A stretch of DNA of 64,000 nt from an uncultured Planctomycetales bacterium (GCA_964354795.1 CAYHBB010000037.1:110197-174196), one strand, 5' to 3'; shown: positions 11,305-31,155, numbered from the stretch's first letter. The notes: generated by a model from the letters alone, not told the origin. Made by a program: numbers and translations.

Positions 11305-12098
11305 AATTTATCTCCCGTTTTTTTTCCTCTGATGATAATAAATGACCCGAAACGATTCATCAAGAATTTACTTTTATGGAGTAAAGCATGCACATATTTT
11401 AATACCGGGTGCCTCTGCGCGCCTCCGAAAGTAGTCATGGATAAATCCAACCCCTTAAAATTGCTGAAAATATCACGGATCTCTTTCTTGGAATACATCC
11501 TTGATAAAGGTGTATTATCGTACCGGCTGGTAAATTTATCCTGGCTGTAAAGCCCGAATAGCCTCTTATAGCCGTGTAACAGCCAAAGTGCATAATAGGC
11601 GTAGCCTTTATGGTAAAGCATGATCACACATTTACCGTTAGGCTTTAAAACCCGGTAAGCCTCATTAATAGCTTTTTGAGTATCAGGAGTATGATGCAAA
11701 ACTCCGAATGAATAGACAATATCAAAGGAGTTATCTTTAAAGGGAAGACGCTCAGCATCGGCATTGACCCCTTTCCCTTTAAGCTGCAGAATCTGCATCC
11801 CCTTCAGAGTAAATGCCACGTTTCTGTGTGACAGATCGAGGCTGATAATATCTGAGCCGTGCTTTGAGATATACCGGCTATCCGTACCCATACCGCAGCC
11901 TATTTCCAGGACCCGCCTTCCCTCTTTGACAAAAGAATCAATGAGCGCGGGAATATAAGAATCGTACTTATAGCGGTGAGCGTCTGTTTCAGTGTAAAAT
12001 TCTTTCTGCTCCGGAGTATATTTCTGCGCAATCAGATCTAGCCCCGGGACATTCTGCGTCCAATAATATTGTATAGTTTTCTTTAATTTTTCTGTCAT
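11295..12098 (-). CDS. Class I SAM-dependent methyltransferase
   Basis: VLEIGCGMGTDSRYI...SLDLS...FDIVYSFGVLHHTPD...LKPNGKCVIMLYH. Confidence 0.8.
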   Translation of the reverse strand: MTEKLKKTIQYYWTQNVPGLDLIAQKYTPEQKEFYTETDAHRYKYDSYIPALIDSFVKEGRRVLEIGCGMGTDSRYISKHGSDIISLDLSHRNVAFTLKGMQILQLKGKGVNADAERLPFKDNSFDIVYSFGVLHHTPDTQKAINEAYRVLKPNGKCVIMLYHKGYAYYALWLLHGYKRLFGLYSQDKFTSRYDNTPLSRMYSKKEIRDIFSNFKGLDLSMTTFGGAQRHPVLKYVHALLHKSKFLMNRFGSFIIIRGKKTGDKLCK

Positions 12099-13579
12099 CT
12101 TGCCATTTCTGATTTTCTGCTCAATTCTCTCCTGAAGTCTTTCAACACTTTAAGCGTTAGTTTATCATATACCTTTTCAATAAAAATACCCTCTAACGGG
12201 AAATAGAAAAACCTCATCTTTATTCTAAGCTGAGTCAAATGATACAGGAATAGAATAGCCATGTTCCTTAAGGATAATGTTTGGGGTTTCTGGGAATACA
12301 TACTTGCCGGAGATAAGACATAAAGTGCGCGGTTGACCTCTTTTGGAATGCGATAAAACTGCGTCTTCTGATAAGTCACGTTGCACCAATCATACGAGTT
12401 ATCGGGTAAAGAATCCTTAATACTGTTTAGAATAGGCATTTTGGGATACGGAATAAAACGAAATATCCTTGTTGAAGCCTGAGGGTAAATACCCTTGATC
12501 CAACGTACTAAATTCAATGTCTCGTAGAAATCTTCTTTTGTTTCCCCTGGCAATCCTGCCATAAAACTAAAATCACATTGGATATTTTGTTTCTTAAGCC
12601 TAATGGCCGTTTCTCTAACCTGCTCTACCTTGATACCTTTATTTAGAGTATTGAGGATGCGCTGAGACCCAGACTCTGCGCCTATGCTTACCCAAACAAG
12701 CCCGCTTTCTGTAAGCTTCTCAATAACCTCATAGTCTAATCGAGAAAAAGTATCCGCCCTACAAAAACCGGACCAGGAAAAATGGATATTCCTTTCTCTC
12801 AGCTTTGTAAAAATATTGACTAATCTATGCGCGTCCACAAAAAGATTGTCATCCCAGAAAAGAATTGATTTAAATTTGTATTTATCATAGGCTTCGCTGA
12901 TTTCAGCAATTATCTTACCCTCTGACTTATCGTGCCAGCGCCTATTATAAATCTCAGAGGCTACGCAATAAGAGCAATTAAAAGGACAACCTCTGCTGGT
13001 AAAATAACTGAATTCCTCGTTTAATAGCTTCGGATAATCTTTCTCTGCGACCGAATAATCTAATTGAGGGAATTCGTCAATATTAAAATTTGACTCTGTC
13101 CGATTTTGCCTGATTGTGCCGTTTTCCTTATATATTAGGCCTGGCACTGAATTAAGGGGCAAATAATCATCGAGCGACTTAACCAACATCAGCAAACTTT
13201 TCTCCCCTACCCCTTTTATCACAAAATCAGCAAGCTGCCTCTTTATCAAATCATCGCCCATCAGGGACGCATGCGGCCCTCCCCAGACTATGGGTAGATC
13301 AGGTTTAATCTTTCTTATGGCCTCCGCTACCGATATCGCATAACTTAAATAAGGCCCGGACATGCTGGATATGCCCACCAAATCAACATTATTTAATTCA
13401 TTTAATATTTGATCTATTGCCCCCGGTAAAGCGGTAGAGACAACCTTGCACTGAATACCCTGCTGCTTCAGATAGCTCGATAAAGCCATAGTGCCGAATG
13501 GAAGGCAGCCGGGAGAAATATTATTCCCAAGCGCAGGCGCTATGGCACCCACTAATAGGCATTTTCTAGTGTTAGACAT
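12095..13579 (-). CDS. Cobalamin(B12)-binding radical SAM protein (class B)
   Basis: N-terminal B12-binding-like Rossmann region (VDLVGISSMS...IVWGGPHAS), then RGCPFNCSYC (CxxxCxxC). 494 aa. Confidence 0.8.
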   Translation of the reverse strand: MSNTRKCLLVGAIAPALGNNISPGCLPFGTMALSSYLKQQGIQCKVVSTALPGAIDQILNELNNVDLVGISSMSGPYLSYAISVAEAIRKIKPDLPIVWGGPHASLMGDDLIKRQLADFVIKGVGEKSLLMLVKSLDDYLPLNSVPGLIYKENGTIRQNRTESNFNIDEFPQLDYSVAEKDYPKLLNEEFSYFTSRGCPFNCSYCVASEIYNRRWHDKSEGKIIAEISEAYDKYKFKSILFWDDNLFVDAHRLVNIFTKLRERNIHFSWSGFCRADTFSRLDYEVIEKLTESGLVWVSIGAESGSQRILNTLNKGIKVEQVRETAIRLKKQNIQCDFSFMAGLPGETKEDFYETLNLVRWIKGIYPQASTRIFRFIPYPKMPILNSIKDSLPDNSYDWCNVTYQKTQFYRIPKEVNRALYVLSPASMYSQKPQTLSLRNMAILFLYHLTQLRIKMRFFYFPLEGIFIEKVYDKLTLKVLKDFRRELSRKSEMAR

Positions 13580-14218
13580 TTATTTCTTGCAAGCAATAAA
13601 GATAAACTGGAACGCGAACAAATTAGGCAATATCTTGATAATAGACCCGAAACCCGTAGGTTCAATCTTTTTTATCTGATATCCGCTTGATTCAAGGAGC
13701 GCTTTTGCTGTTTTTTTAGTAAATAAACGCAGGTGGCCTTTACTCAAGCCCCCACCTTCGGCATAATTAAACTGCCCAAAAAGTAACTGCAACCTGTGCT
13801 CAATCCTTGCTATATTGGGGATAGAAACGATCAACTCGCCGTTTTCCGCTAGGTATGGCCTTAATTTATCCAAGGCAATATCCGGCCTGGCAAGATGCTC
13901 AAGCACATCAAGGCAAAGGATATAATCAAAATACCCCTGGGGAAAAGGTAACACTTCGAGCCTGTCCAGGTCTGCCTCGAATGCTTTTACGCAATGGTTC
14001 TTAGCAAGCTGGCAAGCAGCGGGGTCTTTTTCGATTCCCGAAACAGAGCAATTTTTTTTATTTAACTCACGCGCCATATGCCCCTTGGCGCAACCGACAT
14101 CCAGGACTTTTGAATCAGGCTTGATAAGCTGCAAAGCCTTATAAGTAGGACTGTGCTTCCAGGGGTTATATTCCTGCACCCCCGCTACATCCAGGTCAAA
14201 ATAAAGTTTTTCCGCCAA
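13580..14218 (-). CDS. Class I SAM-dependent methyltransferase
   Basis: VLDVGCAKGHMARELNK...GIEKD...FDYILCLDVLEHL. Confidence 0.8.
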   Translation of the reverse strand: MAEKLYFDLDVAGVQEYNPWKHSPTYKALQLIKPDSKVLDVGCAKGHMARELNKKNCSVSGIEKDPAACQLAKNHCVKAFEADLDRLEVLPFPQGYFDYILCLDVLEHLARPDIALDKLRPYLAENGELIVSIPNIARIEHRLQLLFGQFNYAEGGGLSKGHLRLFTKKTAKALLESSGYQIKKIEPTGFGSIIKILPNLFAFQFIFIACKK

Positions 14219-14219
14219 T

Positions 14220-15413
14220 TTAGCTCTCCATGCTTAAAGAAACAACTGAATCAAATATTTTCTCAGTAGTGTACTGTTTAGCAAACTCTGAAGCAGCTTG
14301 CTTGTATTTCTTTAATTTACCATCATCTTTCAAGATAGAAATGACCGCATCGCGAAGGTCATTACGGTCATATCTTATCACAAGACCCGCACCCTTCTCC
14401 TGTATTTCCCAGGCAGCCGGCATGCCATTGGTCATCACGATAGGAATGCCGCAGAAAGCATATAATTTAGGCTTGCCTGTATCGGCGTAAAGCACATTAT
14501 CTTCTTCGGAACAGGTATATGGCGCGACTCCCAAAGCGCATTTTGAGAGGATATCCAGCACCTGTGACTCATCTTTAATAAAACCGTGAAAGGTAAAATA
14601 ATCCTCCAATCCTGCCTGTTTTACCTCTGCTTTGAGATGAACCTCATAAGGGCCTGTGCCGATCACTCTCACGCGCGCCTTAGGAAACTGCTTGATGATC
14701 TCAGGCATCACCCCTATGAGGAGCTGTAACCCCTGGTTCTGAGAAAGGCTGCCGACAAAACCAATAGTATAACGCTCGATATTCTCAAGCGGGACAAATC
14801 TCTTTATACGCGCATCATAAGTCAATGGCGCTGTGAAATGCCTGTATTTATCCAAATTTACACCTGAAAAATTCTCCCTGCCCTGCGCAATACGCGGTGA
14901 GATATGCCAAGTCACATCTGCATACTTAACGCACAATTTGTCAAGAAACCTGAAAGAAGCGATTATAAGAGTAGCAAAAGACGATCTTGATGGCTTAGGA
15001 TAATAATCAATACTATAATAAATAAGCTTTTTGGTTACTCCCAGCTTCTTTAAGATCACACCTACAAATGTCGAGAAGCAGGCGACGCCTATAAAATAAT
15101 CAAATTTTTTCTGTAAACGCAGAGCAGCGTAGAATATCACCAAAAAATACATAAAGAACGATATGGCAATAAGCGGCTGCTTATACCAGGTCATCCTACC
15201 TACCTGAAAACTTGCTAAACCAAACTCCCTACACTTGCGGCCGCGCTCATACAGCGTACACCGCGAGATATTACACGAAGTATAAGCACTGGTGATGCCG
15301 ATTACTCCGAGCGTATTTACCCTATCCTTAAAATATTCCTCCAGCGTCTCTGTGCGGCTTGAGATCAACTGACCGGAAAGCAGAATATTTAAATCGGATA
15401 AAGCGCGTTTCAT
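14220..15413 (-). CDS. Glycosyltransferase family 4 (GT-B fold); start uncertain
   Basis: GT4-type C-terminal domain (...GVAPY...EEDNVLYADTGKPKLYAFCGIPIVMTNG...). The N-terminal 70 aa are atypical and Cys-rich, so the true start may be internal (MTWYKQ..., ~15194). Confidence 0.6.
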   Translation of the reverse strand: MKRALSDLNILLSGQLISSRTETLEEYFKDRVNTLGVIGITSAYTSCNISRCTLYERGRKCREFGLASFQVGRMTWYKQPLIAISFFMYFLVIFYAALRLQKKFDYFIGVACFSTFVGVILKKLGVTKKLIYYSIDYYPKPSRSSFATLIIASFRFLDKLCVKYADVTWHISPRIAQGRENFSGVNLDKYRHFTAPLTYDARIKRFVPLENIERYTIGFVGSLSQNQGLQLLIGVMPEIIKQFPKARVRVIGTGPYEVHLKAEVKQAGLEDYFTFHGFIKDESQVLDILSKCALGVAPYTCSEEDNVLYADTGKPKLYAFCGIPIVMTNGMPAAWEIQEKGAGLVIRYDRNDLRDAVISILKDDGKLKKYKQAASEFAKQYTTEKIFDSVVSLSMES

Positions 15414-15414
15414 A

Positions 15415-16377
15415 CTATCTCTTATTTACCTGCTCAGAAATCCACTCGTAAGTTTCTGCTAACCCCTCTTCAAGAGTGACCTGCGGCTCCCATTTAAGCA
15501 CCTGGCGCAATTTAGTATTATCACTATTCCTGCCGCGCACGCCTTGAGGCTTAGTCAGGTCATAACGCTTAGTGATCTTCTTTCCGGAGATCTTGGCCAC
15601 GATATCCACCAGCTCATTAATAGAAACCAGATCATCCCTGCCTAAATTAAGCGGCTCATGAAAATCCGAATGCATCAGGCGATACAAACCCTCAACGCAG
15701 TCATCGATAAAACAATACGAACGAGTCTGCAAACCGTCCCCCCACACCTCGATCTCATCCACATCCTTGGCCAGCGCCACCTTTCTGCAAATCGCTGCCG
15801 GAGACTTCTCTCTTCCTCCGTCATATGTACCAAGCGGGCCATAAATATTATGGAACCTTACAGTATATGTCTTAAGGCCGTAATCTTCCATGTAATGCCG
15901 GCAGGCGCGCTCAGTGTAAAGCTTTTCCCAGCCATAACCATCTTCAGCATCCGCCGGATAAGCATCTTCTTCTTTTAGGGCGGTAACATCGGTAGATTTC
16001 TGCTTATATCCGGGATAAACACATGCTGATGAAGTATAAAGGAATTTGTTGACTTTCTCCTGCTTCGCTGCTTCCAGCATATAAAGGCTGATCAGAGTAT
16101 TATCATAGACTATCTCAGCCTTATGCGTCTCAATAAAACCTATCCCGCCCATATTCGCGGCTAAATTATAGACCTCACTGACTCCCTTAACCGCCTTCTG
16201 GCAATTTTTCAAATACCTCAAATCAAGTAGCTTAAAATCATCAGCAGTAGTCTTTTCGTATTCCGGCTTCTTGATGTCCACACCGCGTACCCAATACCCT
16301 TTATTCTGCAGGAACTTAACCAGATGATGCCCGATAAATCCGCCTGCTCCGGTTATCAAAACTTTTGTTTTTGCCAT
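15415..16377 (-). CDS. NAD-dependent epimerase resembling GDP-mannose 3,5-epimerase (GME)
   Basis: VLITGAGGFIGHHL, YTSSACVYP, FHNIYGPLGTYDGGREKSPAAICRKV, WGDGLQTRSYCFIDDCVEG and GVRGRNSDN closely follow the plant/bacterial GME signature blocks, as judged from memory of the GME sequence. Confidence 0.6.
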   Translation of the reverse strand: MAKTKVLITGAGGFIGHHLVKFLQNKGYWVRGVDIKKPEYEKTTADDFKLLDLRYLKNCQKAVKGVSEVYNLAANMGGIGFIETHKAEIVYDNTLISLYMLEAAKQEKVNKFLYTSSACVYPGYKQKSTDVTALKEEDAYPADAEDGYGWEKLYTERACRHYMEDYGLKTYTVRFHNIYGPLGTYDGGREKSPAAICRKVALAKDVDEIEVWGDGLQTRSYCFIDDCVEGLYRLMHSDFHEPLNLGRDDLVSINELVDIVAKISGKKITKRYDLTKPQGVRGRNSDNTKLRQVLKWEPQVTLEEGLAETYEWISEQVNKR

Positions 16378-16473: not shown

Positions 16474-17799
16474 TTACAATCCTTCGCCAAGATGTTTAAT
16501 AGTAATCCCTTTAACGCTTTCCAACAATCTCCAACAATCAAGAAAAACCGTTTTTTTGCTTAGCTTCCTGAATTCTATTCTTTTAAACTCCTGCCATGGC
16601 ACAGCGATGATCGCTAAATCAGCTGCGCTTACACAATCAGTAGCATTCTTGGCGTAACGCACTGTATCTCCCAAGACGCCGCGCACATTTTCTAAAGCCT
16701 GAGGATCATAAACGCTTACCTTATAGCATTCGCTGACTAAAACCTGCGCGATACTCAATGCCTGAGAATCCTCAATAATCGGCGTATTGGGCTTATAGGA
16801 TAAACCTAAAACTGCGACTTTTATCTTATTTTTAGCGATGCGCGGTCTGCCTAAGACTTCATGCACACGCTCGACGATCCTGGTCGCCTGGTCGCGGTTG
16901 ACCTCATCCACCATTTCCGCAAGCTTGGCTTTTGTCTCAAGCCTCCTGGCGAAAGCGGCAAAAGCCACATTGTCGCGGGGAAAACACGGGCCTCCATAAC
17001 CTAATCCCGGACGGATATATTTTGCGCCAATTCGCGTATCCAGGCCAAGGGCTGCGGTGATCACATTGGCATCAGCGCCCTTCATCTTCTCGCAGATCGC
17101 GGCAATAGAATTAGCAAAGGTGATCTTTGTAGTTACATAGCAATTTAGCGATATCTTGGTGATTTCGGCGTTCAAAGGCGACATGCGGGCAAAACGGGGC
17201 TGATTATCGCAGGTCTTCTTGTAAATCTCTTCAAGCATCAATCCGTCTCTCGCGCTCATCTCGCCAATCAAAAGAAAATCCGGATTAAGAAAATCATGGA
17301 TCACGCTTCCTAAAGCGATAAACTCCGGATTGTAGACCACCCCGAAATCCTTGCCACAGGCTTTGCCGGAAGCCTTCTCCAAAATAAATTTAGCTACAGT
17401 CTCCACTGTCCCAGGCATGACCGTAGAAGTCACTACAACCAAGTGATACCCTTTTTTATTTTTTAAAGCCTCACCTATTTTATGTAAAGATTTCTCGAGA
17501 TAATCATTGGAGAAACTTCCATCAGCTAGACTGGGTGTGGCTACCACGATAAAAGTAATATCGCTATTCCTGATCGCCTCGTTATAATCCACGGTGGCAA
17601 ACAGATTCTTACGCACCACTTTAAGCAAGTCGCTCAAACCTGTCTCATCTATTGGAGATATACCTTTATTTATCTTATTTACTTTTTCGATATCCACATC
17701 CACACCAATTACTCTGTAGCCTTTTGAGGCAAAACACGCTGCCGTACATAAACCTAGCTTACCTAAACCTATGACTGAAAGTGAGTTGATTTCTTTCAT
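16474..17799 (-). CDS. Nucleotide-sugar dehydrogenase (UDP-glucose/GDP-mannose dehydrogenase family)
   Basis: N-terminal NAD fold IGLGKLGLCTAACFASKGYRVIGVD, central GGPCFPRD-like catalytic Cys region, and C-terminal UDP-binding domain. 441 aa. Confidence 0.8.
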   Translation of the reverse strand: MKEINSLSVIGLGKLGLCTAACFASKGYRVIGVDVDIEKVNKINKGISPIDETGLSDLLKVVRKNLFATVDYNEAIRNSDITFIVVATPSLADGSFSNDYLEKSLHKIGEALKNKKGYHLVVVTSTVMPGTVETVAKFILEKASGKACGKDFGVVYNPEFIALGSVIHDFLNPDFLLIGEMSARDGLMLEEIYKKTCDNQPRFARMSPLNAEITKISLNCYVTTKITFANSIAAICEKMKGADANVITAALGLDTRIGAKYIRPGLGYGGPCFPRDNVAFAAFARRLETKAKLAEMVDEVNRDQATRIVERVHEVLGRPRIAKNKIKVAVLGLSYKPNTPIIEDSQALSIAQVLVSECYKVSVYDPQALENVRGVLGDTVRYAKNATDCVSAADLAIIAVPWQEFKRIEFRKLSKKTVFLDCWRLLESVKGITIKHLGEGL

Positions 17800-17812
17800 C
17801 CGAAAAACCCCC

Positions 17813-19207
17813 TTATCTTCGCCACTTTTTTGGTAACATCCAATCCGGGAAGAATACCTTTATGAATCTCACTGCAGCCCAGAGCCATCTTCCCGTAAAA
17901 ATAAAGTTCATTATAATTCTTGGCCTGAAATAAAACCTTTTAATTGCAAACTTACGCATATCATCTAGTTCCTGCGTTGTCATGCCCTCTGGCGCATACA
18001 AGACGCGATCCGTGCCTAATTGCGTAAAATCAAAATCTTTAGGAAATTCACCCTTTGCCAAAAGTTCATCGACAATCGGAGACCCCGGCAAAGGTATAAA
18101 CGGAGTAAAAGACGCTCCCCAGAGATGCTTGGTCCTTACCGCCCAATCGATGGTCTGAAACATCTCATCCCTTGTTTCTCCGGGATAGCCTAAAATGAAG
18201 TTGCCATCCGGCCTGAAGCCATATTTATTCAATAACGCTAACCCGCAAGTCAGCTCTTCCTGTGAAAGCTGCTTATCCATAAGCTCGCGCACCCGGGGTA
18301 CCGCGCTTTCTATTCCTACAGCAAAGAACTTTCCGAACCCGGCCTTCTTCATCAAGCCGAGCATCTCCTTATCCATTGTATTAAGCCTGATCCCCCGCGC
18401 GGCCTCAAATTTAAAACGCGCTTTCTTCTCTATCATAAATCGGCAGAAGTCTTTTACATACCCTATATTTATCGGGAAACCTTCGTCCCCAAGGTGAAAC
18501 CTCTCTATACCGTATTCTTTGTTTAAGAAAGATATCTCCTGCCAGACGTCTTCGATCTTCCTGTGCCTAAGTTTCCTGCCAAGCTTCACGCAGAATTTAC
18601 AGCCAAAAGGGCATCCCCTGCTTGCATAAATAGCTGTAGCTTTATCTCCGATTACCGCACACTTAAAATATTTTCTCGGGTCGATCAGGTCCCAGGCAGG
18701 AAAACCGAAATCCTCAAGATCCTTGTGCTCCACGATTTCATTACACCTGACAATCCCATCTTCCCTCCAGATTAACCCAGGCACAGCGCTGATCTTGATC
18801 TGGCCTTTCAACGCCTTATCAAACTGTTCTAAAGGAATTTCTGCTTCTCCCCGGAAAGCAAAATCCGCATCGTGTAAATATTGCAGCGTATGCTCCGGGA
18901 CAGCGGTGGGATGCGGCCCTCCTACGATAGTGATAATTTTCGGGTTATTTCTTTTTACGCGCTCCAGGATATCAAAGGTATTCAATAAAGCAGAAGAGAA
19001 TACCGTAATGCCTACAATATCCGGGCCTGTCCGGCTTACATGATCGACCACGTCTTGAACGCTCCAGCCGTTTATGATACTGTCCTGGATATCCACGGCA
19101 TGCCCGAGCTTACGCAAAACGGTAGCTACATACCCCAACCCTATAGGAGGATGCCCCTGCAGATAATTCATCCCCGCCTTAGGGGGCGCGATAAGAGTAA
19201 TCTTCAT
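17813..19207 (-). CDS. Cobalamin(B12)-binding radical SAM protein (class B)
   Basis: B12-binding-like N-domain (PDIVGITVFSS...IVGGPHPT) followed by SRGCPFGCKFC. 464 aa. Confidence 0.8.
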   Translation of the reverse strand: MKITLIAPPKAGMNYLQGHPPIGLGYVATVLRKLGHAVDIQDSIINGWSVQDVVDHVSRTGPDIVGITVFSSALLNTFDILERVKRNNPKIITIVGGPHPTAVPEHTLQYLHDADFAFRGEAEIPLEQFDKALKGQIKISAVPGLIWREDGIVRCNEIVEHKDLEDFGFPAWDLIDPRKYFKCAVIGDKATAIYASRGCPFGCKFCVKLGRKLRHRKIEDVWQEISFLNKEYGIERFHLGDEGFPINIGYVKDFCRFMIEKKARFKFEAARGIRLNTMDKEMLGLMKKAGFGKFFAVGIESAVPRVRELMDKQLSQEELTCGLALLNKYGFRPDGNFILGYPGETRDEMFQTIDWAVRTKHLWGASFTPFIPLPGSPIVDELLAKGEFPKDFDFTQLGTDRVLYAPEGMTTQELDDMRKFAIKRFYFRPRIIMNFIFTGRWLWAAVRFIKVFFPDWMLPKKWRR

Positions 19208-19218
19208 ATTTAAATATT

Positions 19219-20244
19219 TTAGCTCTTCAGCTTGTATAACCTTGATTCAAACCCCGGGACCCCGATCTTCTTAAACACATAAATTTTACCTATTTCTTTT
19301 GCCATTTTCTTTAGAAGCAGCCTATCTGTAATAACTTTACCTCTGTTTATTCTTTTGTGCTCATTCCAGGTATCCTTAAAGTTATTTATATTCCAAATAT
19401 AGGCCTTAAAGTAAGCATCTTTAACTATTTTATATTGTCCGGAGAAAATAAGCGCCATTAGCTCTAGGCAACTCAATAAAATATATTGCGGCAGAATATA
19501 AGTAAGTGTGGATAAAGAATAATTCTTGAGTATTGAGCGGATAAGATTGCGCTCGCCAAGCTCTCTTTTCCAAACGTTTGTCTTATATTGCTTTTGTTTT
19601 TCAATATCTCCGCATGCGGAATCATGCAGAAACCTGGCGGATCCGACAGGGACTATCTTGTATCCCTGCAACCAAACCCTCCAGCACAAATCCCGGTCCT
19701 CGCCATAAAGAAACAGTTTTGGGTCAAACCCGCTTATCTTGTCAAACACTATCCTGCGGATAAAGATCGCGGCGTCCGGATAAAATATCGGATGCCCAGG
19801 CCTGGAATACCCGCAAGGATATCCAAACCTGTCTACAGAAATCCCTATGCTTTCACCGATCCGGTTCTTCCCGTCATAAGTAAAAACATCGCAGGCGCAA
19901 ACCGCGACCCTTTTGTCTGACTGCGCAGCCTTTACCAGCTCCGTCAGTATATTTTTTTCTACAATCGTATCATTATTAAGAAAGAACAGATATTCGCCCT
20001 GCGCAACTTCAGCCCCGCGATTACTAGCCACTGCCAAGCCAAGGTTTACTTTTAGTTCCAGAACCTTTATTTTAGGGTAATTCTTACGGATGAGCTCAAC
20101 GCTATCATCAGAAGAACCATTATCCACAAAGATCAGTTCAAAATCCGAATAATCGACTTTCTCAAGCGAATCAAAACAGTTTTTTAAATACTTCCTACCG
20201 TTATAATTGACAATGATAACGCTGACTAATCCGGGCTTCATCAT
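19219..20244 (-). CDS. Glycosyltransferase family 2
   Basis: [17 protein letters not shown]...[14 protein letters not shown]...FFLNNDT (GT-A DXD region). Confidence 0.85.
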
Positions 20245-21817: not shown

Positions 21818-22552
21818 CTATAGCATGCTCATGCCGCCATCAATAGAAATGGTCTGGCCGCTGATGTAATCCGAGGCATTTGACGCCAGAAACAGGATCA
21901 GCTTTGCCACTTCTTCCGGCGAACCCAATCGTTTCAAAGGAACAGCTTCAATAAGTCTAGCTAAACGCTCTTCAGGGATTTTTTTCACCATGTCGGTGTT
22001 GATGAGGCTGGGAGCGATAGCATTCACGTTGATATTATCTTTGCCGTAAATTCTTGCTAAAGATTTGGTCATGGCGATGACCCCCGCCTTTGCCACGGCA
22101 TAATGCGGAGCGGCGGAAGAGCCGATCTTGCCTGACAAAGACGAAACATTAATGATCTTTCCATGCCCTTGCTTCTTAAAATAAGGCATCACTCTTTGGG
22201 CTAAGAAAAAACCTCCTTTTAAATCCAAACTCATCACTTCATCAAAATGGCTCTCCTCGATCTCCTCAAAATCAACGCATTCGAAAGTCCCGGCATTGTT
22301 TACCAAAATATCTATCTTTGTAAATTTATCAAAAGCTTCTTTTACCAGCTTCTTAATATCTTCTTTCAAACGCAGATCAGCCTTAACTACCAAAACCTGC
22401 TTATTTTTAGCAAGATCATTAAGCAATTTAACATTCTGATGCGCGCTCAGGACCAGGTTCGCGCCTTCTTTTAAGAATAATTCGGCAGTAGCTTTTCCGA
22501 TTCCCCTACTTGCTCCGGTGATGATCGCGGTCTTGCCCTCAAGGATACCCAT
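21818..22552 (-). CDS. Short-chain dehydrogenase/reductase (FabG-like)
   Basis: TGASRGIGKA cofactor motif and YxxxK catalytic motif (YAVAKAG). 244 aa. Confidence 0.85.
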   Translation of the reverse strand: MGILEGKTAIITGASRGIGKATAELFLKEGANLVLSAHQNVKLLNDLAKNKQVLVVKADLRLKEDIKKLVKEAFDKFTKIDILVNNAGTFECVDFEEIEESHFDEVMSLDLKGGFFLAQRVMPYFKKQGHGKIINVSSLSGKIGSSAAPHYAVAKAGVIAMTKSLARIYGKDNINVNAIAPSLINTDMVKKIPEERLARLIEAVPLKRLGSPEEVAKLILFLASNASDYISGQTISIDGGMSML

Positions 22553-23634
22553 TATTTGATTCTCCTCAATCGCTCTTTAAGCTGCGTCTCAAAAGATTGT
22601 ATTTTTTTGTAAGGTATCAATACCGGCTCCACATCCATTCCCCGCACCCAAGCTAAGCCATTAGGCAAGGGATTGATCTTTCTCTTGATCGCCGGCAGTT
22701 TCTCGCCAAACGCCGCCTTGATGTAGATATACGGCATATTCAATCCCGCTTCGGTGAAAAATTGATGGGTGGTGAAGAACCTTCCGATATTTATCTCTGT
22801 AGGATTAGCCACACCGTTTCTATCATAAGTGAGATCTACGCCATAGATCCCATGCGGGCAGTCATCAATAGCCTGGATGGCTTTTATCGCCAGCTTATCC
22901 AACTTTTTGTCGCTTACCGTAACACCCGTCCCGGTTATACCGGTGACTCCGGATACACTGCGATTGCCAAATTCCCAGTACAGCCGTTTCCTGCCCTGCG
23001 CTACCACCAGCTCACCATTCTTCCAGATAGATAGCCAGGTAATACTATCCGGGCTTAAATATTCAGCCACGCTGAAATTCCCCCATCCCTTGTAATAATT
23101 TATCCAGTTCCGGGCAAAATTAAAGCTATCAGTAGGCAAAGACCATTTGCCGAATGCTCCTGAGATAGCGCGCACCCAGACTTTGCCTTTAATCTTGCGG
23201 AAAGCCCCCTTCAAGTCCTTCTCACTATTAATGAGATAAGTCTTAGGCACCTTCATCCCGGAGTCCTTCCAGGCCTCGGCAGACTTAAACTTATCCTGGC
23301 AGATCTCGATCACTTCATGGCGGGGCAAAAAAGTATTAACTCCCCATTCATCGCGATACTTAGAAACTACAAACACCTCTTCGTCATTCTGGGCATGGAA
23401 GAAATCCGGCTTGGTTTCCTTAATGATCTGCTTGATCACCGGGACATAATCCTGCTCGTCTTTTGCCGGAGGCACCAGGAAATATTTATCCACCATGCCG
23501 ATAGACTTGCACAGATCATACTTATTGCAAGTCACACCTATTAGATAAAACTTCTCTTTTGATTTTCGAAGCGAGCGGATAAAATTAAGGCTGGGAGCGC
23601 CACCCGCACCGCCTACAAGTATGCATTTAATCAT
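22552..23634 (-). CDS. ATP-grasp domain protein (carboxylate-amine ligase-like)
   Basis: ATP-grasp-like architecture (...KVPKTYLINSEKDL...KGKVWVRAISGAFGKW...). The start was moved to MIKCILVGGAGG (M22), because the ORF-track start would overlap the upstream gene by 70 nt. Confidence 0.55.
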   Translation of the reverse strand: MIKCILVGGAGGAPSLNFIRSLRKSKEKFYLIGVTCNKYDLCKSIGMVDKYFLVPPAKDEQDYVPVIKQIIKETKPDFFHAQNDEEVFVVSKYRDEWGVNTFLPRHEVIEICQDKFKSAEAWKDSGMKVPKTYLINSEKDLKGAFRKIKGKVWVRAISGAFGKWSLPTDSFNFARNWINYYKGWGNFSVAEYLSPDSITWLSIWKNGELVVAQGRKRLYWEFGNRSVSGVTGITGTGVTVSDKKLDKLAIKAIQAIDDCPHGIYGVDLTYDRNGVANPTEINIGRFFTTHQFFTEAGLNMPYIYIKAAFGEKLPAIKRKINPLPNGLAWVRGMDVEPVLIPYKKIQSFETQLKERLRRIK

Positions 23635-24616
23635 TTTTCCAGTAGTGCTTTTTGTTTTCCCGATAAAATTTGACTGTTTCCTTAATGCCACTATCAAGGC
23701 TTACCTTAGGCTTCCAACCCACGACCCTCTTGATCTTGGTAATATCCGCGTAATAATCTCCCGGCTCAAGGGCCTTGCGCTCATTTGTAAACTTAGTGAA
23801 CCTGATACTGCCGCTATGGGCGATCTTTACGATTTTCTTAGCCAGATCAATAAAGTTCACCGGCTCACCTGTGCCTACATTAAAGACCTGGCCATAAGCC
23901 TTTGGCGTAAGTCCGCATTTAAGCAGACAATCCACTAAGTCGTCAATATAAAGAAAATCACGCAGGATCCTTCCGTCACCGAAAATATCAATCGGTTCAC
24001 CGTCAATAGCCTTACGGATAAACCAGTTAAACACCCCGTATTCATCATGCTGCATCTGATGCCGCGGCCCATAAGTATTAGTAATACGCAAAGCAATCGT
24101 ATTAAGCTTATGCACCTGATTATAAACCGTCACCAGATTCTCCGCGCATAGATTAGTGATTGCGTAAACCCCCTTAGGATGCATTGGGTGTTCTTCGTCA
24201 ACCGGAAGCCTCACGCTTGAGCCATACTGCCCGCGGGTGCCGGAAAAAATCACCTTTGCCTGAGGATTAAACTTCCTACAGGCTTCCAATACCACTAACG
24301 TTCCTTCGGCATTAATGCTTAAATCCTGCAAAGGATTCTTAATGCTATCCACGTGGCTGACCTGGCCGGCAAGATGGAAAATATAATCCTTATCTTTGAC
24401 CAGTTCATTCATCGCGTCGGGATCGCGGATATCCGCGTAATCCACCACCACCTTGCGCTCCACCGGTTTAATATTAAAAACATTCCCGCCCTGCCGGGGA
24501 AGCAAGCAATCAACGATAGTGACCACCGCGCCTTTTTTCACTAAAGCGATAACCAGATTGCTGCCCACAAATCCTAACCCACCGGTAATCAAAACTTTCT
24601 TAAATTTATAGCTCAT
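23627..24616 (-). CDS. NAD-dependent sugar epimerase/dehydratase (UDP-hexose 4-epimerase-like SDR)
   Basis: VLITGGLGFVGSNL; catalytic YxxxK (YAITNLCAE..). Confidence 0.75.
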   Translation of the reverse strand: MSYKFKKVLITGGLGFVGSNLVIALVKKGAVVTIVDCLLPRQGGNVFNIKPVERKVVVDYADIRDPDAMNELVKDKDYIFHLAGQVSHVDSIKNPLQDLSINAEGTLVVLEACRKFNPQAKVIFSGTRGQYGSSVRLPVDEEHPMHPKGVYAITNLCAENLVTVYNQVHKLNTIALRITNTYGPRHQMQHDEYGVFNWFIRKAIDGEPIDIFGDGRILRDFLYIDDLVDCLLKCGLTPKAYGQVFNVGTGEPVNFIDLAKKIVKIAHSGSIRFTKFTNERKALEPGDYYADITKIKRVVGWKPKVSLDSGIKETVKFYRENKKHYWKND

Positions 24617-25686
24617 AAATTAAGCGACTGCTTGACCTGTTTTTCATTCTTACGGACCCAAGCATAGATATCGCCCATGATCTCGGGAGCTGATTTCTTA
24701 GGTGACCAGCCAAGCTCCTGAGTGGCCTTGCGGTTATCCGTCAGATAGATCGCGATATCTCCCGGACGGTTCTTTGTGTCTTTGCCGACTTTAATCCGGT
24801 TTCCGCAGATCTCCCGACACAGCTGAGTAGTCTCCAGAAGCGATAGGCTCACCTCTCTGCCGCCTCCCACATTGTAAATCCGTCCGTTAATCTTCGCCAA
24901 CTGTGAAGCTTCCAGATCAATAAGCGCGAAAAGGTCGCGTATGTGCAACAGGTCGCGCACCTGCTTGCCCTTGGCGCCAAAACCGATATAGTTCAACTCT
25001 TTCTTAAAATAATGGCTCAACATCCAGAAAGTAAAAACTCCCTGATCCACCTTTCCAAATTGCCAAGGACCTGCAATCACCCCGCAGCGATTGACCACTC
25101 CCTTTATGCCGTAATTAACGATGTACTCCTCAAGTAATAACTCAGAGGCTAGTTTTGTCGCGCCGTAAAATGTCTTTGCGCCTTCGGTGGTAAAGCCCAC
25201 ATCAACGCCTTTCTTTGACCAGCCATGGATATGCTGTCCATCCTGCCAATCCAGCCGGGTCTCCAACTCTTTGGTCTTGATCTTATTGAGCGGCCCATAA
25301 GGATAAACCCGGCTGGTAGAAAGAAATATAACATCCGCCTTATGCTTACGCGCCAACTCCAGGCAATTCACTGTCCCCATAAGGTTTGTATGGATAATAT
25401 AGCCCGGATTATCCTTTAAACCTGATAAAACACTTGGCTCGGCAGAGCACTCGATCAAAAGATCGATCCTTTCCTCCAGAACCAAATCCTCAGGGCAACG
25501 GATATCCGCGTGCATAAATTCTACATCGTTGGCTTTCAGACGGCTTAAATTCAGTTCACTTCCCCTGCGTTTTAAGTTATCTAAAGCAATTAAACGCGCC
25601 TTAGGATATTTTCTTTTAAAAGAAATAGCCAGATTACTGCCTATAAATCCCGCACCACCGGTTACAAGTATGGTTTTATATTTCAT
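24613..25686 (-). CDS. NAD-dependent epimerase, CDP-paratose 2-epimerase-like
   Basis: [22 protein letters not shown], and [17 protein letters not shown] (compare the GNGKQVRD block of RfbE). Confidence 0.7.
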
Positions 25687-26750
25687 GCCTTCACCTGCTC
25701 CTTCTGCACCGCGTAGATCTCTTTTAAGGTATCCTCGATATTATATTTATAATCCCAGCCCGGATAATGCGCTTTAAACTTTGAGACATCGCTGATCCAC
25801 CAGATATGGTCGCCGGTCCTATTCTGATCCACATATTCGTATTCCAGGCGCAGGCCGCCGCTGATCTTAACGCATAGGTCAATAGTTTCAAGTATAGAAA
25901 TATTAGCGAACCTACTTCCGCCCATATTGTATACTTCGCCGCAGCGGGGATTCTTATAAAAGTGATTGAATGCCTCCACCAGGTCATGGGAATGGATATT
26001 GTCGCGCACCTGCTTACCTTTGTAGCCGAAAATCTTGTATTTTTTTCCTGTCACTAGGCACTTGACCAGATACGACAGAAAACCGTGCAGCTGCGCACCT
26101 GAATGCATCGGTCCGGTAAGGCATCCGCCGCGAAATACGCCTGACTTCAACCCAAAATACCTTCCATACTCCTGCACTAGGACATCAGCCGCTACTTTTG
26201 ACGCCCCAAAAAGGCTGTGCAGGCAACTATCAATGCTCATGGATTCATCGATGCCCTTATAGTATTGATGCTCCTTGGGCAGCTCAAATCGCTTTTCCAG
26301 CTCCACTAGCGGCAGGGAATTCGGACGGTCTCCGTATACTTTGTTAGTAGAAGTAAAAATAAACACCGCATCCGGTGCAAACTTCCTGGTTGCCTCCAGC
26401 ATTACCAGCGTGCCGTTAGCATTGACCGTAAAATCTATTTTTGGATCCCGAGCTGCCCAGTCATGAGATGGTTGTGCCGCGGCATGCACGATGAGCGAGA
26501 TATTTTTGCCGTATTTCTTAAAAAGACTAGCCACCTTCTTTTCATCGCGGATATCTATAGAATAATGCTTATAGTTTTTGTGTTTCTTCTCTAAGCGCGC
26601 CTTATTCCAGACAATACTTCCGTCTTGCCCAAAAAAGAACTTACGCATATTGTTATCTATGCCAACGACGTCAAATCCCTTTTCGCAGAAATAACTGACT
26701 GTCTCAGAACCAATCAGACCGCATGAGCCAGTGACTAAAACAATCGCCAT
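25683..26750 (-). CDS. NAD-dependent epimerase, CDP-paratose 2-epimerase-like (paralog of the preceding gene)
   Basis: [37 protein letters not shown]. Confidence 0.7.
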
Positions 26751-26772
26751 ATTAAATCCCTCTTCCAGATAA

Positions 26773-27021
26773 TTACTTGTATTGATAAAACAAAAATACC
26801 AGAATCACAACGCTTAATAGAGAAACCGAATTAGCCGCAATAATGATCGGATCTTTCAAATGAACGCCGTAGGCAAGCCACAAAGATACGCCCACGCCAA
26901 ACTGCAAAATAGTAGTCAGGCTAACATCCCTTACAGACTTAGTCTTAAATATCTTAATGATCTGCGGAACAAAAGCAAATGTCGTCAAAGCCGCAGCTAA
27001 GCCGCCTATGATATACCACAT
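26773..27021 (-). CDS. SemiSWEET / PQ-loop sugar transporter (82 aa, 3 TM)
   Basis: Three transmembrane helices with the PQ motif ([13 protein letters not shown]). Its stop overlaps the rmlB start. Confidence 0.65.
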
Positions 27022-28010
27022 TATTTATATAATGGCGCGATACTTTCCCATTTGGAAAACAGCCATCCCCGGTTAACCTTTGCCCAAGAAACAGTTTTCT
27101 TTAAACCTTCTTCTAAATTCACTTTCGGCCTCCAGCCGGTCTCTCTTACCGTCTTAGAGCAATTAAGCCTATAGCGGATATCATGGCCGAGCCTGTCTTT
27201 TACAAATTCTATCCTGTCCAACGAAACCCCGAGCACATTCAAAAGCAACCTTATGGTATCCAGATTCTGACGCTCTTCATTGCTGCCAATATTATAGACC
27301 TCACCGATTTTTCCTTTTAGCAATATTGACAAAATTCCACGTGCGCAGTCATCCACATAAAGCCACTCCCGCACATTCCTACCAGTACCGTAAACCGGTA
27401 TATCCTCTCCCCGGAAGATCTTTAATATTGAAAGCGGGATCAGCTTTTCCGGGTATTGCCAAACTCCGTAATTATTGCAGGGCCGTACAATCACAGCAGG
27501 AAATTCATAGGTCCTGATATAAGAATTAATCAAGAGATCCGCGGCTGCTTTTGAAGCAGCATAAGGACTATTGGGTTTTATGGGGGAAGATTCGGTAAAT
27601 TCACCGCTTGCAATCTCTCCGTACACCTCATCTGTCGAGACATGGACAAATCTTTCAACGCCATACTTACGCGAAGCATCCAATAAAATCTGGGTCCCAA
27701 TGACATTGGTCTTAAGAAAAACTTCCGCATCGCGAATACTTCTATCCACATGGGTTTCCGCGGCAAAGTTTACGATCACCCTGGGCTTGTGCTTCTTAAA
27801 GATCTTCTCCACCTCAGCCTTGTCCACGATATCAGCTTTATAAAATCTACATTCATCCAAGACGCCTTTTAACCTTTTTAGATCTCCGGCATAGGTAAGT
27901 TTATCCATAATAATCACCCGGAATCCAAATTTTACCGCAAGTCGCACAAAAGCGCTGCCGATAAACCCTGCACCGCCGGTAACTAATATTGGGTGTATTT
28001 TTCTACGCAT
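27021..28010 (-). CDS. rfbB: dTDP-glucose 4,6-dehydratase
   Basis: [15 protein letters not shown]; ...FVHVSTDEVYGE...YAASKAAADLL. 329 aa. Confidence 0.85.
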   Translation of the reverse strand: MRRKIHPILVTGGAGFIGSAFVRLAVKFGFRVIIMDKLTYAGDLKRLKGVLDECRFYKADIVDKAEVEKIFKKHKPRVIVNFAAETHVDRSIRDAEVFLKTNVIGTQILLDASRKYGVERFVHVSTDEVYGEIASGEFTESSPIKPNSPYAASKAAADLLINSYIRTYEFPAVIVRPCNNYGVWQYPEKLIPLSILKIFRGEDIPVYGTGRNVREWLYVDDCARGILSILLKGKIGEVYNIGSNEERQNLDTIRLLLNVLGVSLDRIEFVKDRLGHDIRYRLNCSKTVRETGWRPKVNLEEGLKKTVSWAKVNRGWLFSKWESIAPLYK

Positions 28011-28801
28011 TCTTCAAGCACCTCATGGATGTCGCGGACTTTAAAACCGCTTTTTCTTAATTTACGCGTTGAGAGGATCAAATTGGTCCTTACCAGATTC
28101 AGGGCCTTAAAGCTAACTAACTTATATTTAAAATCAGGATTAAATTTCTGGTAAATATCCAGCAGCTCGGGATACCTTAAGGCTCCGGCATTCACCGTAT
28201 TATAAATCCCTGTCGCCTTGATCTTGATCAGATGCTTCAGGGCTTTTATAAAATCCGGCAGGTAAGTAATAGAATTGGCCACATCAATGGCTTTCCCGTA
28301 TTTGATCAGCTTGGTAAGTATGTTCTTGGGATGCGGACGGTCATCCAAAGGAATACGCGGCCGCATGATCAATACTGGATATTTTTTAGCTAACGGCAAG
28401 AGCGCCTGCTCAGCATAGATCTTACTGCGGCTATAAAAAAGATCAAAAAAATCCGGAGTGCGCTCTTCAGTTATCGGTACAGCCCGCTTATAATCAAAAT
28501 TATAAATGCAACCGCTGCTTAAATGCACAAACCGGATTTTAGTACGCACCGCCGCTTCAGCAAGGACAAGCGGAACAAAAGTGTTAGCGCTTAATGTCAG
28601 GTCCTTTGCTTTTTCGCAGTCATCTACATTGCCACCGGTATATCCGATACAATTGATGATCACCGCAGGCCGATGAATCCTTACCTCATCCAGAACGTCA
28701 TTTAAACATTTGATCTTTCTTTCACTGACAGCGCAACCCAGCTTTTCCTGAATCCGGGAACCGATAAAGCCTTTTCCGAAAATGAGAATCTTGTTATTCA
28801 T
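27983..28801 (-). CDS. rfbD: dTDP-4-dehydrorhamnose reductase-like (RmlD family 4-ketoreductase)
   Basis: [13 protein letters not shown], 272 aa, RmlD-like SDR layout, sits between rmlB and rmlA. Confidence 0.7.
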
Positions 28802-29661
28802 TTCTTGACCAAGCCCCTCAGGTACTCCCCATACTCAGTAGGAATATTCTTAGCTAAGATCAAGAGTTCCTTTGCGCTGATATAGCCTCTAGCATAGGCC
28901 ACCTCTTCGATGCACCCGATCTTCAAACCCTGCCGCTCTTCAATAGTCTTTATAAACGTCGAGGCGTTCACCAAAGAATCATATGTCCCGGTATCCAGCC
29001 AGGCAAAGCCACGGCCCAAAGTAACAACATTAAGTTTCTTTTTCTTTAAGTATTCCCGGTTTACATCAGTGATCTCAAGCTCGCCCCTTGCGGAAGGCGA
29101 GATATTTCTTGCGATATCCACTACGCCGTTGTCATAAAAATATAACCCGGTGACCACCCAATTTGACGCAGGCTTCTTAGGCTTCTCAATTATTGAGCTG
29201 ACTTTTCCCTTCTGGTCAAATCCGATTACCCCGTATCTTTGCGGACTAGTTACATAATAGCCGAAAATCGTGGCCCCTGACTTATGCCCGGAAGCTTTTT
29301 TCAGTATGCTGACCAGATCGCTTCCGTAATAAATGTTATCCCCCAGGATCAACGCGACACTGTCTTGGCCAATAAACTGCTCGCCGATAATAAAGCTCTC
29401 CGCGATCCCCCGCGGCGCGCTTTGCGACGCATAAGTTATGCGTATGCCTAAGGAAGAACCGTCTCCCAGCAACGCCTCGAATTGCGGCAGGGCATGGGGC
29501 GTGGAAATGATCAGGATATCTTTGATGCCGGCAAGCATCAAAGTAGAAAGCGGATAATAAATCATCGGCTTGTCGTATACCGGCAGAAGCTGCTTGCAGA
29601 CGCTTCTTGTGATCGGATAAAGCCGTGTTCCGTTTCCTCCCGCTAAGATTATACCTTTCAT
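28798..29661 (-). CDS. rfbA: Glucose-1-phosphate thymidylyltransferase
   Basis: [46 protein letters not shown] matches the RmlA N-terminus almost residue-for-residue. Confidence 0.9.
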
Positions 29662-29670
29662 AAGTTTCTC

Positions 29671-31155
29671 CTAGTTAACTTTAGAATAATCTTTTTTGAA
29701 ATCCACAATATGGCCGATGACTTTCTGGGCTGCGCGCAGAGAATACTTAAGGTCATCCGCATCGCGCATGGAGAATATTTTCCTGAGCATAAACTCAGGG
29801 GTAAATGAGACCTTATACATCTGCCGGGCAAAACCCATGATCTCCTCGTCAGGAATCGGACTGCTCATCACCGGGCGCTTCATATCAAAATCATCCCAGT
29901 CAGTAGTCTTGAGCCACCCGTTATTCTTAGCCTCCTCAAACAGCGGACTTCCCGGATAAGGAATGACCACAGTCGCCTGCATGGTATAAGCATAGCCTTT
30001 TTTAAGCAGCCAGCGGCCGAGGTTTAAGGTGTTCATAGCCTGCTCATAGCTCTCCCAGGGGTAGCCAAACATCATGGTGATATGAGGAAAAAGCCCGGCT
30101 TTTGTCGCGGCAATGCAATCCGCGATGATCCTTTCCACTTTCAAATTCTTATTTATACGGTCAAGCGTCTCCTGATTAGCCGATTCCAAACCAAATAACA
30201 ATAAACGAAAGTTCGCCTTCTTCATCAGCTTAAAATCTTCCCCAGAAAGCGCGCCAAAACGCATATTACAGTCAAAATATATCTTTTTATTATATCCGCG
30301 CTCGACCATGCCCCGACAGAAATCTTTAAGCCATCCGCCGGCTGAAAAACATCCGGCGTCATCCATGACCTCCCGCACGCCATAATTCTCGATCAACCCG
30401 CCGATCTCATCCAAAACATTCTCTACGCTACGGGTGCGATATTGAGGATAAAGCGTCGGCCATGAGCAAAATGTGCACTTGCCCCACCAGCAGTCGCGTC
30501 CGCTCATGATATAAGCTCCGGGAGTACGCTTATAATTACCGTTTTTATAAGCGTAATCTTCCCAGCGGGTCAGTTCGCGCTCAATTGGCGGCAGAGAATT
30601 CAGATCGTGGTTAAGCTGAAACTGACCGGTGTTCTTGACCGAATCGCCATCGCGATAGTAGATACCCGGTTCCAATTGGGGTGAGTTGCGGGTTGTGGGT
30701 TGTGTGGATAAATGATTACATAAATTTAGCAGAAGGAAATCATAATCTCCACCGGTAAGCACAAAATCCACGCCACATTCTTTAAACGACTCTTCTGCCA
30801 GCGCCGTAACATGATCACCGAAAAGCACAACCTTTGGAAACCCGCGCAGCGCCCCCTTGATCTCATCAATGATCTCCCAGTGCTGCTTTACCGCAGGGGT
30901 CTTAGTTTCTATGGCGATCACATCCGGCCGCTCGGCCTTCAGAGTCTTAAGAAATTGTTCAAGACTGATCTCTGCGGCAATACAATCAAGCCATATCACC
31001 TGATGACCGGCCTGCTTAAGCATAGTTGCGGCCTGCGCCGGAACAACCGGATAAATATAGGTCGGCTCCTTAAAATACTGGAACTGCCGGTTTTGTCCCA
31101 AAGTGGGACAACCCTTAAACCTGTTTAAAGGCGGATATGCAATAATTATCTTCAA
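29671..31155 (-). CDS. Cobalamin(B12)-binding radical SAM protein with apparent variant Cys motif
   Basis: B12-binding-like N-domain (PDVIAIETKTP...). The Cys cluster reads GRDCWWGKCTFC, i.e. Cx4Cx2C by eye rather than CxxxCxxC. 494 aa. Confidence 0.7.
   Translation of the reverse strand: MKIIIAYPPLNRFKGCPTLGQNRQFQYFKEPTYIYPVVPAQAATMLKQAGHQVIWLDCIAAEISLEQFLKTLKAERPDVIAIETKTPAVKQHWEIIDEIKGALRGFPKVVLFGDHVTALAEESFKECGVDFVLTGGDYDFLLLNLCNHLSTQPTTRNSPQLEPGIYYRDGDSVKNTGQFQLNHDLNSLPPIERELTRWEDYAYKNGNYKRTPGAYIMSGRDCWWGKCTFCSWPTLYPQYRTRSVENVLDEIGGLIENYGVREVMDDAGCFSAGGWLKDFCRGMVERGYNKKIYFDCNMRFGALSGEDFKLMKKANFRLLLFGLESANQETLDRINKNLKVERIIADCIAATKAGLFPHITMMFGYPWESYEQAMNTLNLGRWLLKKGYAYTMQATVVIPYPGSPLFEEAKNNGWLKTTDWDDFDMKRPVMSSPIPDEEIMGFARQMYKVSFTPEFMLRKIFSMRDADDLKYSLRAAQKVIGHIVDFKKDYSKVN

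Follow-up and report, generated by a model that had tools for sequence, protein, structure and literature searches.

A 64,000-nucleotide stretch of DNA from an uncultured Planctomycetales bacterium (GCA_964354795.1 CAYHBB010000037.1:110197-174196), hereafter the window, is filled between 797 and 48158 by minus-strand genes in near-continuous succession, and by gene similarity the nearest genomes are those of Omnitrophota. Within this run lie three genes, all on the minus strand like the other genes of the glycan locus described below, for proteins that pair a B12-binding-type domain with a radical S-adenosylmethionine (SAM) domain: enzyme A (12095-13579, 494 aa), enzyme B (17813-19207, 464 aa), and enzyme C (29671-31155, 494 aa, TTG start). 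A fourth gene, at 7212-8222, encodes a radical SAM/SPASM protein of 336 aa with a canonical CNLSCIFC motif. Directly upstream of C are GT2_c (31166-32170), a family 2 glycosyltransferase of 334 aa with three C-terminal hydrophobic segments that is recognized by Pfam and NCBIfam; GT2_d (32106-32900), a soluble family 2 glycosyltransferase of 264 aa that matches Pfam Glycos_transf_2 and has no transmembrane segment; and a Wzx-type polysaccharide flippase of 412 aa (32897-34135) that matches Pfam Polysacc_synt and shows about 11 hydrophobic segments in a hydropathy scan. The Wzx gene is the first of the glycan locus and lies directly downstream of tyrS (34145-35356), beyond which the genes are of housekeeping type (rpsA, phosphoglucomutase, rpe, nadD, proAB, obg, riboflavin genes, pgsA, ftsK, and pnp).

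In A, B, and C, the B12-binding domain precedes the radical SAM domain, and both exceed their Pfam cut-offs (32.1 bits for B12-binding, PF02310, and 29.5 bits for Radical_SAM, PF04055), with respective scores of 53 and 80 bits for A, 78 and 67 bits for B, and 40.7 and 55 bits for C. The open reading frame (ORF) at 7212-8222 has the expected radical SAM/SPASM architecture, scoring 69.7 bits for Radical_SAM and 46.9 bits for SPASM (PF13186). As the E-values range from 1e-10 to 1e-22, the matches of these four ORFs are not due to chance. An earlier note, made from the sequence alone, had proposed this domain order for the three enzymes, the fourth gene at exactly these coordinates, and a setting among nucleotide-sugar genes; the analysis bears out each of these proposals, with the neighboring genes annotated by Pfam and NCBIfam as nucleotide-sugar and glycosyltransferase genes. 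The scores against named NCBIfam families fell far below the corresponding cut-offs. HpnJ (TIGR03471, cut-off 577.6 bits) scored 142.3 bits with C, 128.5 with A, and 101 with B; BchE (TIGR02026, cut-off 481.35 bits) scored 140.1 bits with B, 105.3 with C, and 103.8 with A; the PhpK-family P-methyltransferases (TIGR04479, cut-off 600 bits) scored 137.2 bits with A; and the AprD4 family diol dehydratase (NF033070, cut-off 500 bits) scored 50.6, 55.1, and 27.7 bits with A, B, and C, respectively. The highest-scoring families were PhpK, ApyD, and HpnJ for A (approximately 130-137 bits), BchE for B (140 bits), and HpnJ for C (142 bits), and for ORF 7212-8222 the top score was 110.6 bits against a cut-off of 380.

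Pairwise identity among A, B, and C is merely 23-26%, which led us to reject recent duplication as their origin and indicates that they represent three old, independent lineages. The TTG start of C is backed by homologs that open with MKIIISYPP. The exact sequence of C was not on record in the sequence look-up; for A, an identical sequence is present on an NCBI contig of 188 kb (P0121). An AlphaFold2 model of C (pLDDT 80, pTM 0.84) has a Rossmann-like beta-alpha N-terminal domain, and its best matches among solved structures are AprD4, MgmA (9ccb), TsrM, OxsB, and CysS; at the level of a predicted fold, the model confirms the combination of Rossmann domain and partial barrel that characterizes class B architecture. 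Within the literature covered by our search, no description of families A, B, or C was found.

The cysteine motifs lie at 12965-12988 in A (CPFNCSYC), 18590-18613 in B (CPFGCKFC), and 30466-30492 in C (CWWGKCTFC), exactly as the earlier note had quoted them. The motif of C encodes a predicted [4Fe-4S]-binding Cx4Cx2C composed of C222, C227, and C230. In a 38-sequence alignment of C, these three residues are invariant and are the best-conserved cysteines, which supports the reading by eye that had first singled them out. The protein contains cysteines at residues 16, 58, 127, 146, 222, 227, 230, 269, 280, 296, and 347; another triad that would restore the canonical CxxxCxxC was rejected, as no CxxxCxxC is present in the protein and C222, C227, and C230 are invariant. 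Among the 120 nearest homologs of C, 113 have Cx4Cx2C (mostly CWWGKC[TS]FC), seven have Cx7Cx2C (CWHRENGGCTFC), and none has Cx3Cx2C. When representatives at 50% identity are considered, spacers of 3, 4, 7, and 9-12 residues between the first and second cysteines are found within the close clade of C, and relatives at approximately 30% identity are canonical, e.g., CPYRCTFC. BLASTP alignments of C with B and with HpnJ match the three cysteines of C to the canonical triads and open a gap of one residue between them, and the C-family profile CW[WY]GKCTFC aligns without a gap to the CDYSRCTFC of OxsB. C also has CxWGKCxFC in common with queuine lyase (6p78). The homologs of A and B have the canonical Cx3Cx2C; odd spacings among them were rejected as artifacts of an upstream cysteine, since the canonical motif is embedded in these sequences, e.g., CSSRGCPFECTFC. 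The unusual spacing of C is therefore genuine, but it cannot be considered a new variant, as Cx4Cx2C has been described in solved structures of OxsB (PMC9204698) and reported for GenD1 (PMC4340712). One Cx4Cx2C cluster is also listed by RadicalSAM.org (PMC9477430).

Several further observations concern the cysteines of the C family. Five relatives of 665-972 aa (P0361, P0363, P0364, P0371, and P0372) contain inteins, recognized through Intein_splicing and in most cases also a LAGLIDADG homing endonuclease, that are placed exactly before the equivalents of the first or third cluster cysteine (C222 and C230), so that a cluster ligand is also the intein +1 nucleophile. Inteins typically home to indispensable active-site residues, and their insertion exactly at these positions marks the first and third cysteines as essential. 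Five full-length paralogs with 33-50% identity to C (P0367, P0373, P0376, P0383, and P0397) have lost all three cluster cysteines, e.g., RDSDWGQSSLGS, and the two that were scanned, P0373 and P0376, still score for both B12-binding and Radical_SAM; judging from their sequences, these paralogs may be catalytically dead pseudo-enzymes. Outside the motif, C296 and C347 are invariant across the C family and C146 and C280 are present in at least 90% of sequences, and these four residues could form an auxiliary metal site.

The C family is large, with 5,959 matches among 8,000 candidates scored and 435 representatives at 50% identity (E < 1e-30). C is 94% identical to a gene from a Lac Pavin metagenome-assembled genome (L001), and its homologs are 62-72% identical across Omnitrophota and 52-59% identical in Nealsonbacteria, Moranbacteria, Syntrophaceae, Kiritimatiellia, and Spirochaetota. 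In 50 of the 58 C-related loci with enough upstream sequence, a GT2_c homolog is encoded directly upstream of the C homolog on the same strand; both GT2_c and GT2_d homologs are upstream in 42, a Wzx homolog lies within 5 kb in 47, and tyrS is kept in 19. Downstream of C, gene content differs among loci. Two fusions also occur directly upstream of C homologs: in Nealsonbacteria (L054), GT2_c is fused to a UDP-glucose dehydrogenase, and in Syntrophaceae (L055), GT2_c and a second family 2 glycosyltransferase are fused into one protein that also carries TPR repeats. GT2_d resembles the polyprenyl-phosphate hexose synthases AglJ, ArnC, and PpgS and a dolichyl-phosphate hexose transferase, all below the NCBIfam cut-offs, and GT2_c is closest in NCBIfam to MftF and to AglG, a glucosyl-dolichyl phosphate glucuronosyltransferase. 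As called, the ORFs of GT2_d and GT2_c overlap by 65 nucleotides (32106-32170), and the true start of GT2_c may be further downstream than called. On the parsimonious reading of this module, a conserved glycan begins with a lipid-linked mono- or disaccharide, and C would modify this first unit ahead of flipping.

The families of A and B are distributed differently in number, with approximately 25 relatives of A above 40% identity and a mid-sized B family whose paralogs often occur on one contig. Homologs of B are found in glycan loci, where they adjoin genes for UDP-glucose dehydrogenase, methyltransferases, and glycosyltransferases of families 2 and 1. One related locus (L079) has the order B-like, dehydrogenase, epimerase, family 2 glycosyltransferase, family 1 glycosyltransferase, methyltransferase, A-like, which matches the window but for the family 2 glycosyltransferase. 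The pairing of a methyltransferase gene followed by A is directly adjacent in this locus, and other genes intervene in L080. The earlier note had considered three such genes in one locus to be rare, a view that the comparison does not sustain for these lineages: in L080, L081, and L055, a span of 9-13 kb contains three B12-type radical SAM genes, L066 has four matches, and two to four are present within 8 kb on either side of the C homolog in five of 39 long loci. In L080 and L081, the B12-type radical SAM genes are interleaved with class I methyltransferase genes, and L081 also encodes two radical SAM/SPASM proteins similar to that at 7212-8222; radical SAM and methyltransferase genes are likewise interleaved, with flanking family 2 glycosyltransferase genes, on a plasmid of Lawsonia intracellularis (L086). 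Near a B homolog in L083, the block of methyltransferase, membrane protein, radical SAM, and carbamoyltransferase-SxtJ genes known from the window is present again. Loci with three B12-type radical SAM genes thus recur among these lineages. In a different setting, a B-like gene in L084 directly follows cinA among pgpA, pgsA, a miaB-like gene, rodZ, ftsK, and pnp; the same housekeeping neighborhood is found in the window at 48660-57892 without a B-like gene. Because of the housekeeping neighborhood of this gene, some members of the B family may have non-glycan roles.

Among the remaining genes of the locus, those next to C on its downstream side encode RmlA (28798-29661; 451.6 bits against an equivalog cut-off of 360.65), a reductase with a weak match to RmlD (27983-28801; 54.8 bits, cut-off 224), and RmlB (27021-28010; 416.2 bits against an equivalog cut-off of 365.1). 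From these sequence matches, the block is assigned to the supply of a dTDP-6-deoxyhexose, and the weakness of the RmlD-like match, together with the absence of RmlC from the annotated genes of the locus, suggests a dTDP-6-deoxy-D-hexose and not L-rhamnose. Three paralogs of the extended short-chain dehydrogenase/reductase (SDR) type, annotated by Pfam and NCBIfam as nucleotide-sugar epimerases/dehydratases, follow at 23627-26750, and the pair at 24613-26750 adjoins C in many loci at 60-75% identity. Next are an ATP-grasp-like protein of 381 aa (22552-23697), an SDR (21818-22552), the family 2 glycosyltransferase GT2_b (20799-21815), a hexapeptide O-acetyltransferase (20241-20795), and the family 2 glycosyltransferase GT2_a (19219-20244). 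The product of 22552-23697 has no Pfam match and only weak NCBIfam matches to ATP-grasp and carbamoyl-phosphate-synthase-like proteins, and its homologs are 55-94% identical in the three related loci examined (L001, L022, and L065); its role may be to attach an amino acid or an amide group to a uronic acid. Between B and A lie genes for a nucleotide-sugar dehydrogenase (16474-17799), an SDR epimerase/reductase (15415-16377), a family 1 glycosyltransferase (14220-15413), and a class I methyltransferase (13580-14218). Beyond A (8223-12098), five class I SAM-dependent methyltransferases are encoded one after another, and the far end of the locus contains, past the radical SAM/SPASM gene, a polytopic membrane protein (5437-7224), a carbamoyltransferase (3623-5434), an SxtJ-like membrane protein (3219-3620), a secreted protein without assigned function (2203-2967), and two class I methyltransferases (797-2206). 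The carbamoyltransferase and SxtJ-like pair (3219-5434) recurs near B homologs, where it is followed by DUF5989 (L083), and is probably a module for glycan O-carbamoylation. Nine class I SAM-dependent methyltransferase genes in the glycan locus (797-2206, 8223-12098, and 13580-14218) imply a very heavily methylated glycan. A scan for promoters and terminators across 26500-35600 returned counts no higher than those in shuffled sequence.

Taken together, the region from approximately 797 to 34135, about 33 kb, is best read as the surface-glycan biosynthesis locus of an Omnitrophota bacterium. The locus starts at a conserved chromosomal site, pgm-rpsA-tyrS, with the conserved module Wzx / GT2_d / GT2_c / C, and continues into a strain-variable part that comprises the dTDP- and UDP-sugar genes, further glycosyltransferases, the nine class I methyltransferases, the acetyltransferase, the carbamoyltransferase, A, B, and the radical SAM/SPASM enzyme. 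A, B, and C would then be three independent lineages of class B architecture that tailor the sugars of this glycan. For the conserved module, we propose that GT2_d loads a hexose onto polyprenyl phosphate, that GT2_c, anchored in the membrane, extends this with another sugar that is possibly a uronic acid, that C acts on the lipid-linked sugar at the cytoplasmic membrane face, and that Wzx subsequently flips the product. In C, the [4Fe-4S] cluster would be held by C222, C227, and C230 in an OxsB-type Cx4Cx2C loop that is one residue longer than the canonical motif; reductive cleavage of SAM would yield a 5'-deoxyadenosyl radical that removes a hydrogen atom at an unactivated carbon of the sugar. 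The most probable next event would be methyl transfer from methylcobalamin to give a C-methylated (branched or chain-extended) sugar. C-methylation is favored because most characterized class B enzymes are carbon methylases, including GenK, GenD1, and MoeK5, which act in the biosynthesis of moenomycin and gentamicin (PMC9204698, PMC4340712). Together with HpnJ, these methylases are precedents for class B enzymes with sugar substrates, some of which are lipid-linked. We consider it probable, though by no means assured, that A, B, and C are class B radical SAM enzymes that tailor a glycan, with C acting on a polyprenyl-phosphate-linked sugar, and this degree of confidence applies to the picture as a whole, with C-methylation as the likeliest outcome. 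Directly observed are the order of domains, the conserved triad of cysteines, the synteny, and the setting among glycan genes; the lipid-linked substrate, the use of cobalamin, and the outcome of methylation are what we infer from them.

A number of results weigh against this proposal. As no NCBIfam cut-off was reached by A, B, C, or ORF 7212-8222, no function is transferable by homology, and the best-scoring named families of C and B, HpnJ and BchE, are non-methylases. C homologs in Kiritimatiellia and in one Spirochaetota locus (55-57% identity) have no adjacent GT2 pair. No priming phosphoglycosyltransferase, Wzy polymerase, or ligase was recognized in the annotation of the locus, which means that both the lipid carrier and the final acceptor are assumed. 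An Rfam scan of the whole window returned no match, and hence no cobalamin riboswitch, and the window contains no cobalamin gene. Lastly, the best structural match of C is AprD4, and for this reason the predicted cobalamin binding of C is not established and the Pfam B12-binding match is no proof of cobalamin use.

The alternative that survives best is that C, and perhaps B as well, belongs to the class B enzymes that do not methylate and would instead rearrange a lipid-linked sugar, through a ring contraction or carbocycle formation of the kind proposed for HpnJ, a ring contraction such as that shown for OxsB, or a radical epimerization or oxidation. HpnJ matches C nearly end to end, with 27% identity (E = 1e-30) and a common CTFCxWP signature, and its gene also follows that of a family 2 glycosyltransferase, in the order hpnI-hpnJ-hpnK. 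The Cx4Cx2C of C is common to the ring-contracting OxsB (PMC9204698), and the top match of B is BchE. However, the score of 142 bits is far under the HpnJ cut-off, the HpnJ motif is a canonical Cx3Cx2C, GT2_c is not an HpnI ortholog (E = 0.003), and neither an HpnK-like deacetylase nor a hopanoid gene is present in the window. Moreover, HpnJ clusters with the methylases Fom3 and MoeK5 in published similarity networks (PMC9204698), so that a likeness to HpnJ does not separate methylation from rearrangement, and the prevalence of methylases among characterized class B enzymes also argues against it. We therefore regard rearrangement as a serious alternative that is nonetheless unlikely. A more far-reaching form of this idea, that family C is a phylum-wide, essential-like enzyme of Omnitrophota, also present in candidate-phyla-radiation bacteria and some Deltaproteobacteria, and that it rearranges a polyprenyl-phosphate-linked sugar by radical chemistry without methylating it, e.g., through a ring contraction to a cyclitol or carbasugar of the kind proposed for HpnJ, is doubtful and is offered tentatively; if true, the cell envelope of these ultra-small uncultured bacteria would contain a previously unknown conserved core sugar.

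It is also conceivable, but quite improbable in our judgment, that one or more of A, B, and C is cobalamin-independent and, like AprD4, performs a radical dehydration or deoxygenation of a sugar that a partner SDR reductase completes to give a deoxy sugar. AprD4 works without cobalamin despite a similar N-terminal domain. In a review, it is set apart from the B12-dependent enzymes as unrelated to them. Its structure gives the best match to the C model (E = 4e-18, TM-score 0.69-0.74), it turns up in sequence searches of A, B, and C, SDR genes are abundant beside B and C, and the lack of a cobalamin-related gene or riboswitch in the window would fit such an activity. On the other hand, A, B, and C reach a low 28-55 bits for the AprD4 family in NCBIfam (cut-off 500), all three enzymes exceed the Pfam B12-binding cut-off, and the cobalamin-dependent MgmA, TsrM, OxsB, and CysS match C almost as well. 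A role unrelated to the glycan, as maturases of ribosomally synthesized and post-translationally modified peptides (RiPPs) or of lipids that merely reside in the locus, is already disfavored and very improbable: ApyD, a RiPP enzyme, and lipid-modifying families are among the weak NCBIfam matches of A and B, but no precursor peptide or RiPP partner genes were recognized, the genes follow each other closely or overlap on a single strand, and synteny with glycosyltransferase, Wzx, and sugar-nucleotide genes is kept across phyla.

The reactions that class B radical SAM enzymes catalyze at unactivated carbons are difficult ones, and few of these enzymes have been tied to cell-envelope glycans. Family C is well suited to study in this respect, with thousands of members, 62-72% identity across an uncultured phylum, and a fixed chromosomal place, and its minimal set of conserved partners, two family 2 glycosyltransferases and a flippase, makes reconstitution tractable. 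Solving the function of C would reveal a conserved, probably unusual envelope sugar of Omnitrophota and candidate-phyla-radiation bacteria, and would add a data point on the spacing tolerated between the first and second cysteines, which amounts to 3, 4, 7, or more residues in one clade. Knowledge of the superfamily itself is unchanged, as there are precedents for the motif variant as well as for the architecture.

Four known systems provide the most instructive comparisons for C. HpnJ is proposed to contract the ring of glucosamine in bacteriohopanetetrol glucosamine and has a lipid-linked sugar as its substrate (PMC9204698). It is the best-scoring named family for C, and it is encoded directly after the glycosyltransferase gene hpnI, as C is after GT2_c. 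It differs in its canonical CRSRCTFC motif, whereas C has Cx4Cx2C, and in its context, as the C family belongs to glycan loci of Omnitrophota and candidate-phyla-radiation bacteria and the window is without HpnK or hopanoid genes. Orthology of C to HpnJ was rejected on score (142 vs 577.6 bits), motif, and context. AprD4 (PDB 6FD2), a radical SAM 1,2-diol dehydratase that acts on paromamine, resembles C in its N-terminal Rossmann-like domain and, given the predicted sugar substrate of C, in acting on an aminoglycoside sugar, but it is only about 15% identical to C, scores 27.7 bits in NCBIfam, and functions without cobalamin. OxsB (PDB 5UL2-5UL4), which performs the ring contraction of oxetanocin, has a Cx4Cx2C that corresponds to that of C column for column, the same pairing of Rossmann and radical SAM domains (E = 4e-15 for the structural match to the C model), and a sugar-containing (nucleoside) substrate. 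It differs from C in its low identity of about 16%, its length of 744 aa with extra N- and C-terminal domains, and its action on 2'-deoxyadenosine phosphate together with OxsA. The methylases GenD1, GenK, and MoeK5 resemble C, by description, as class B enzymes that methylate unactivated carbons (PMC9204698), and GenD1 is also reported to have the Cx4Cx2C spacing (PMC4340712). MoeK5 acts on a lipid-linked uronic acid. It clusters with HpnJ in similarity networks (PMC9204698). All three differ from C, again by description, as enzymes of actinomycete antibiotic pathways and not of cell-envelope glycan loci. Compared with these systems, A, B, and C are new members whose architecture, motif variant, and sugar context all have precedents, and what the conserved Wzx / GT2 / GT2 / C module offers is a good lead for enzymology that can be put to the test, rather than a new kind of system.

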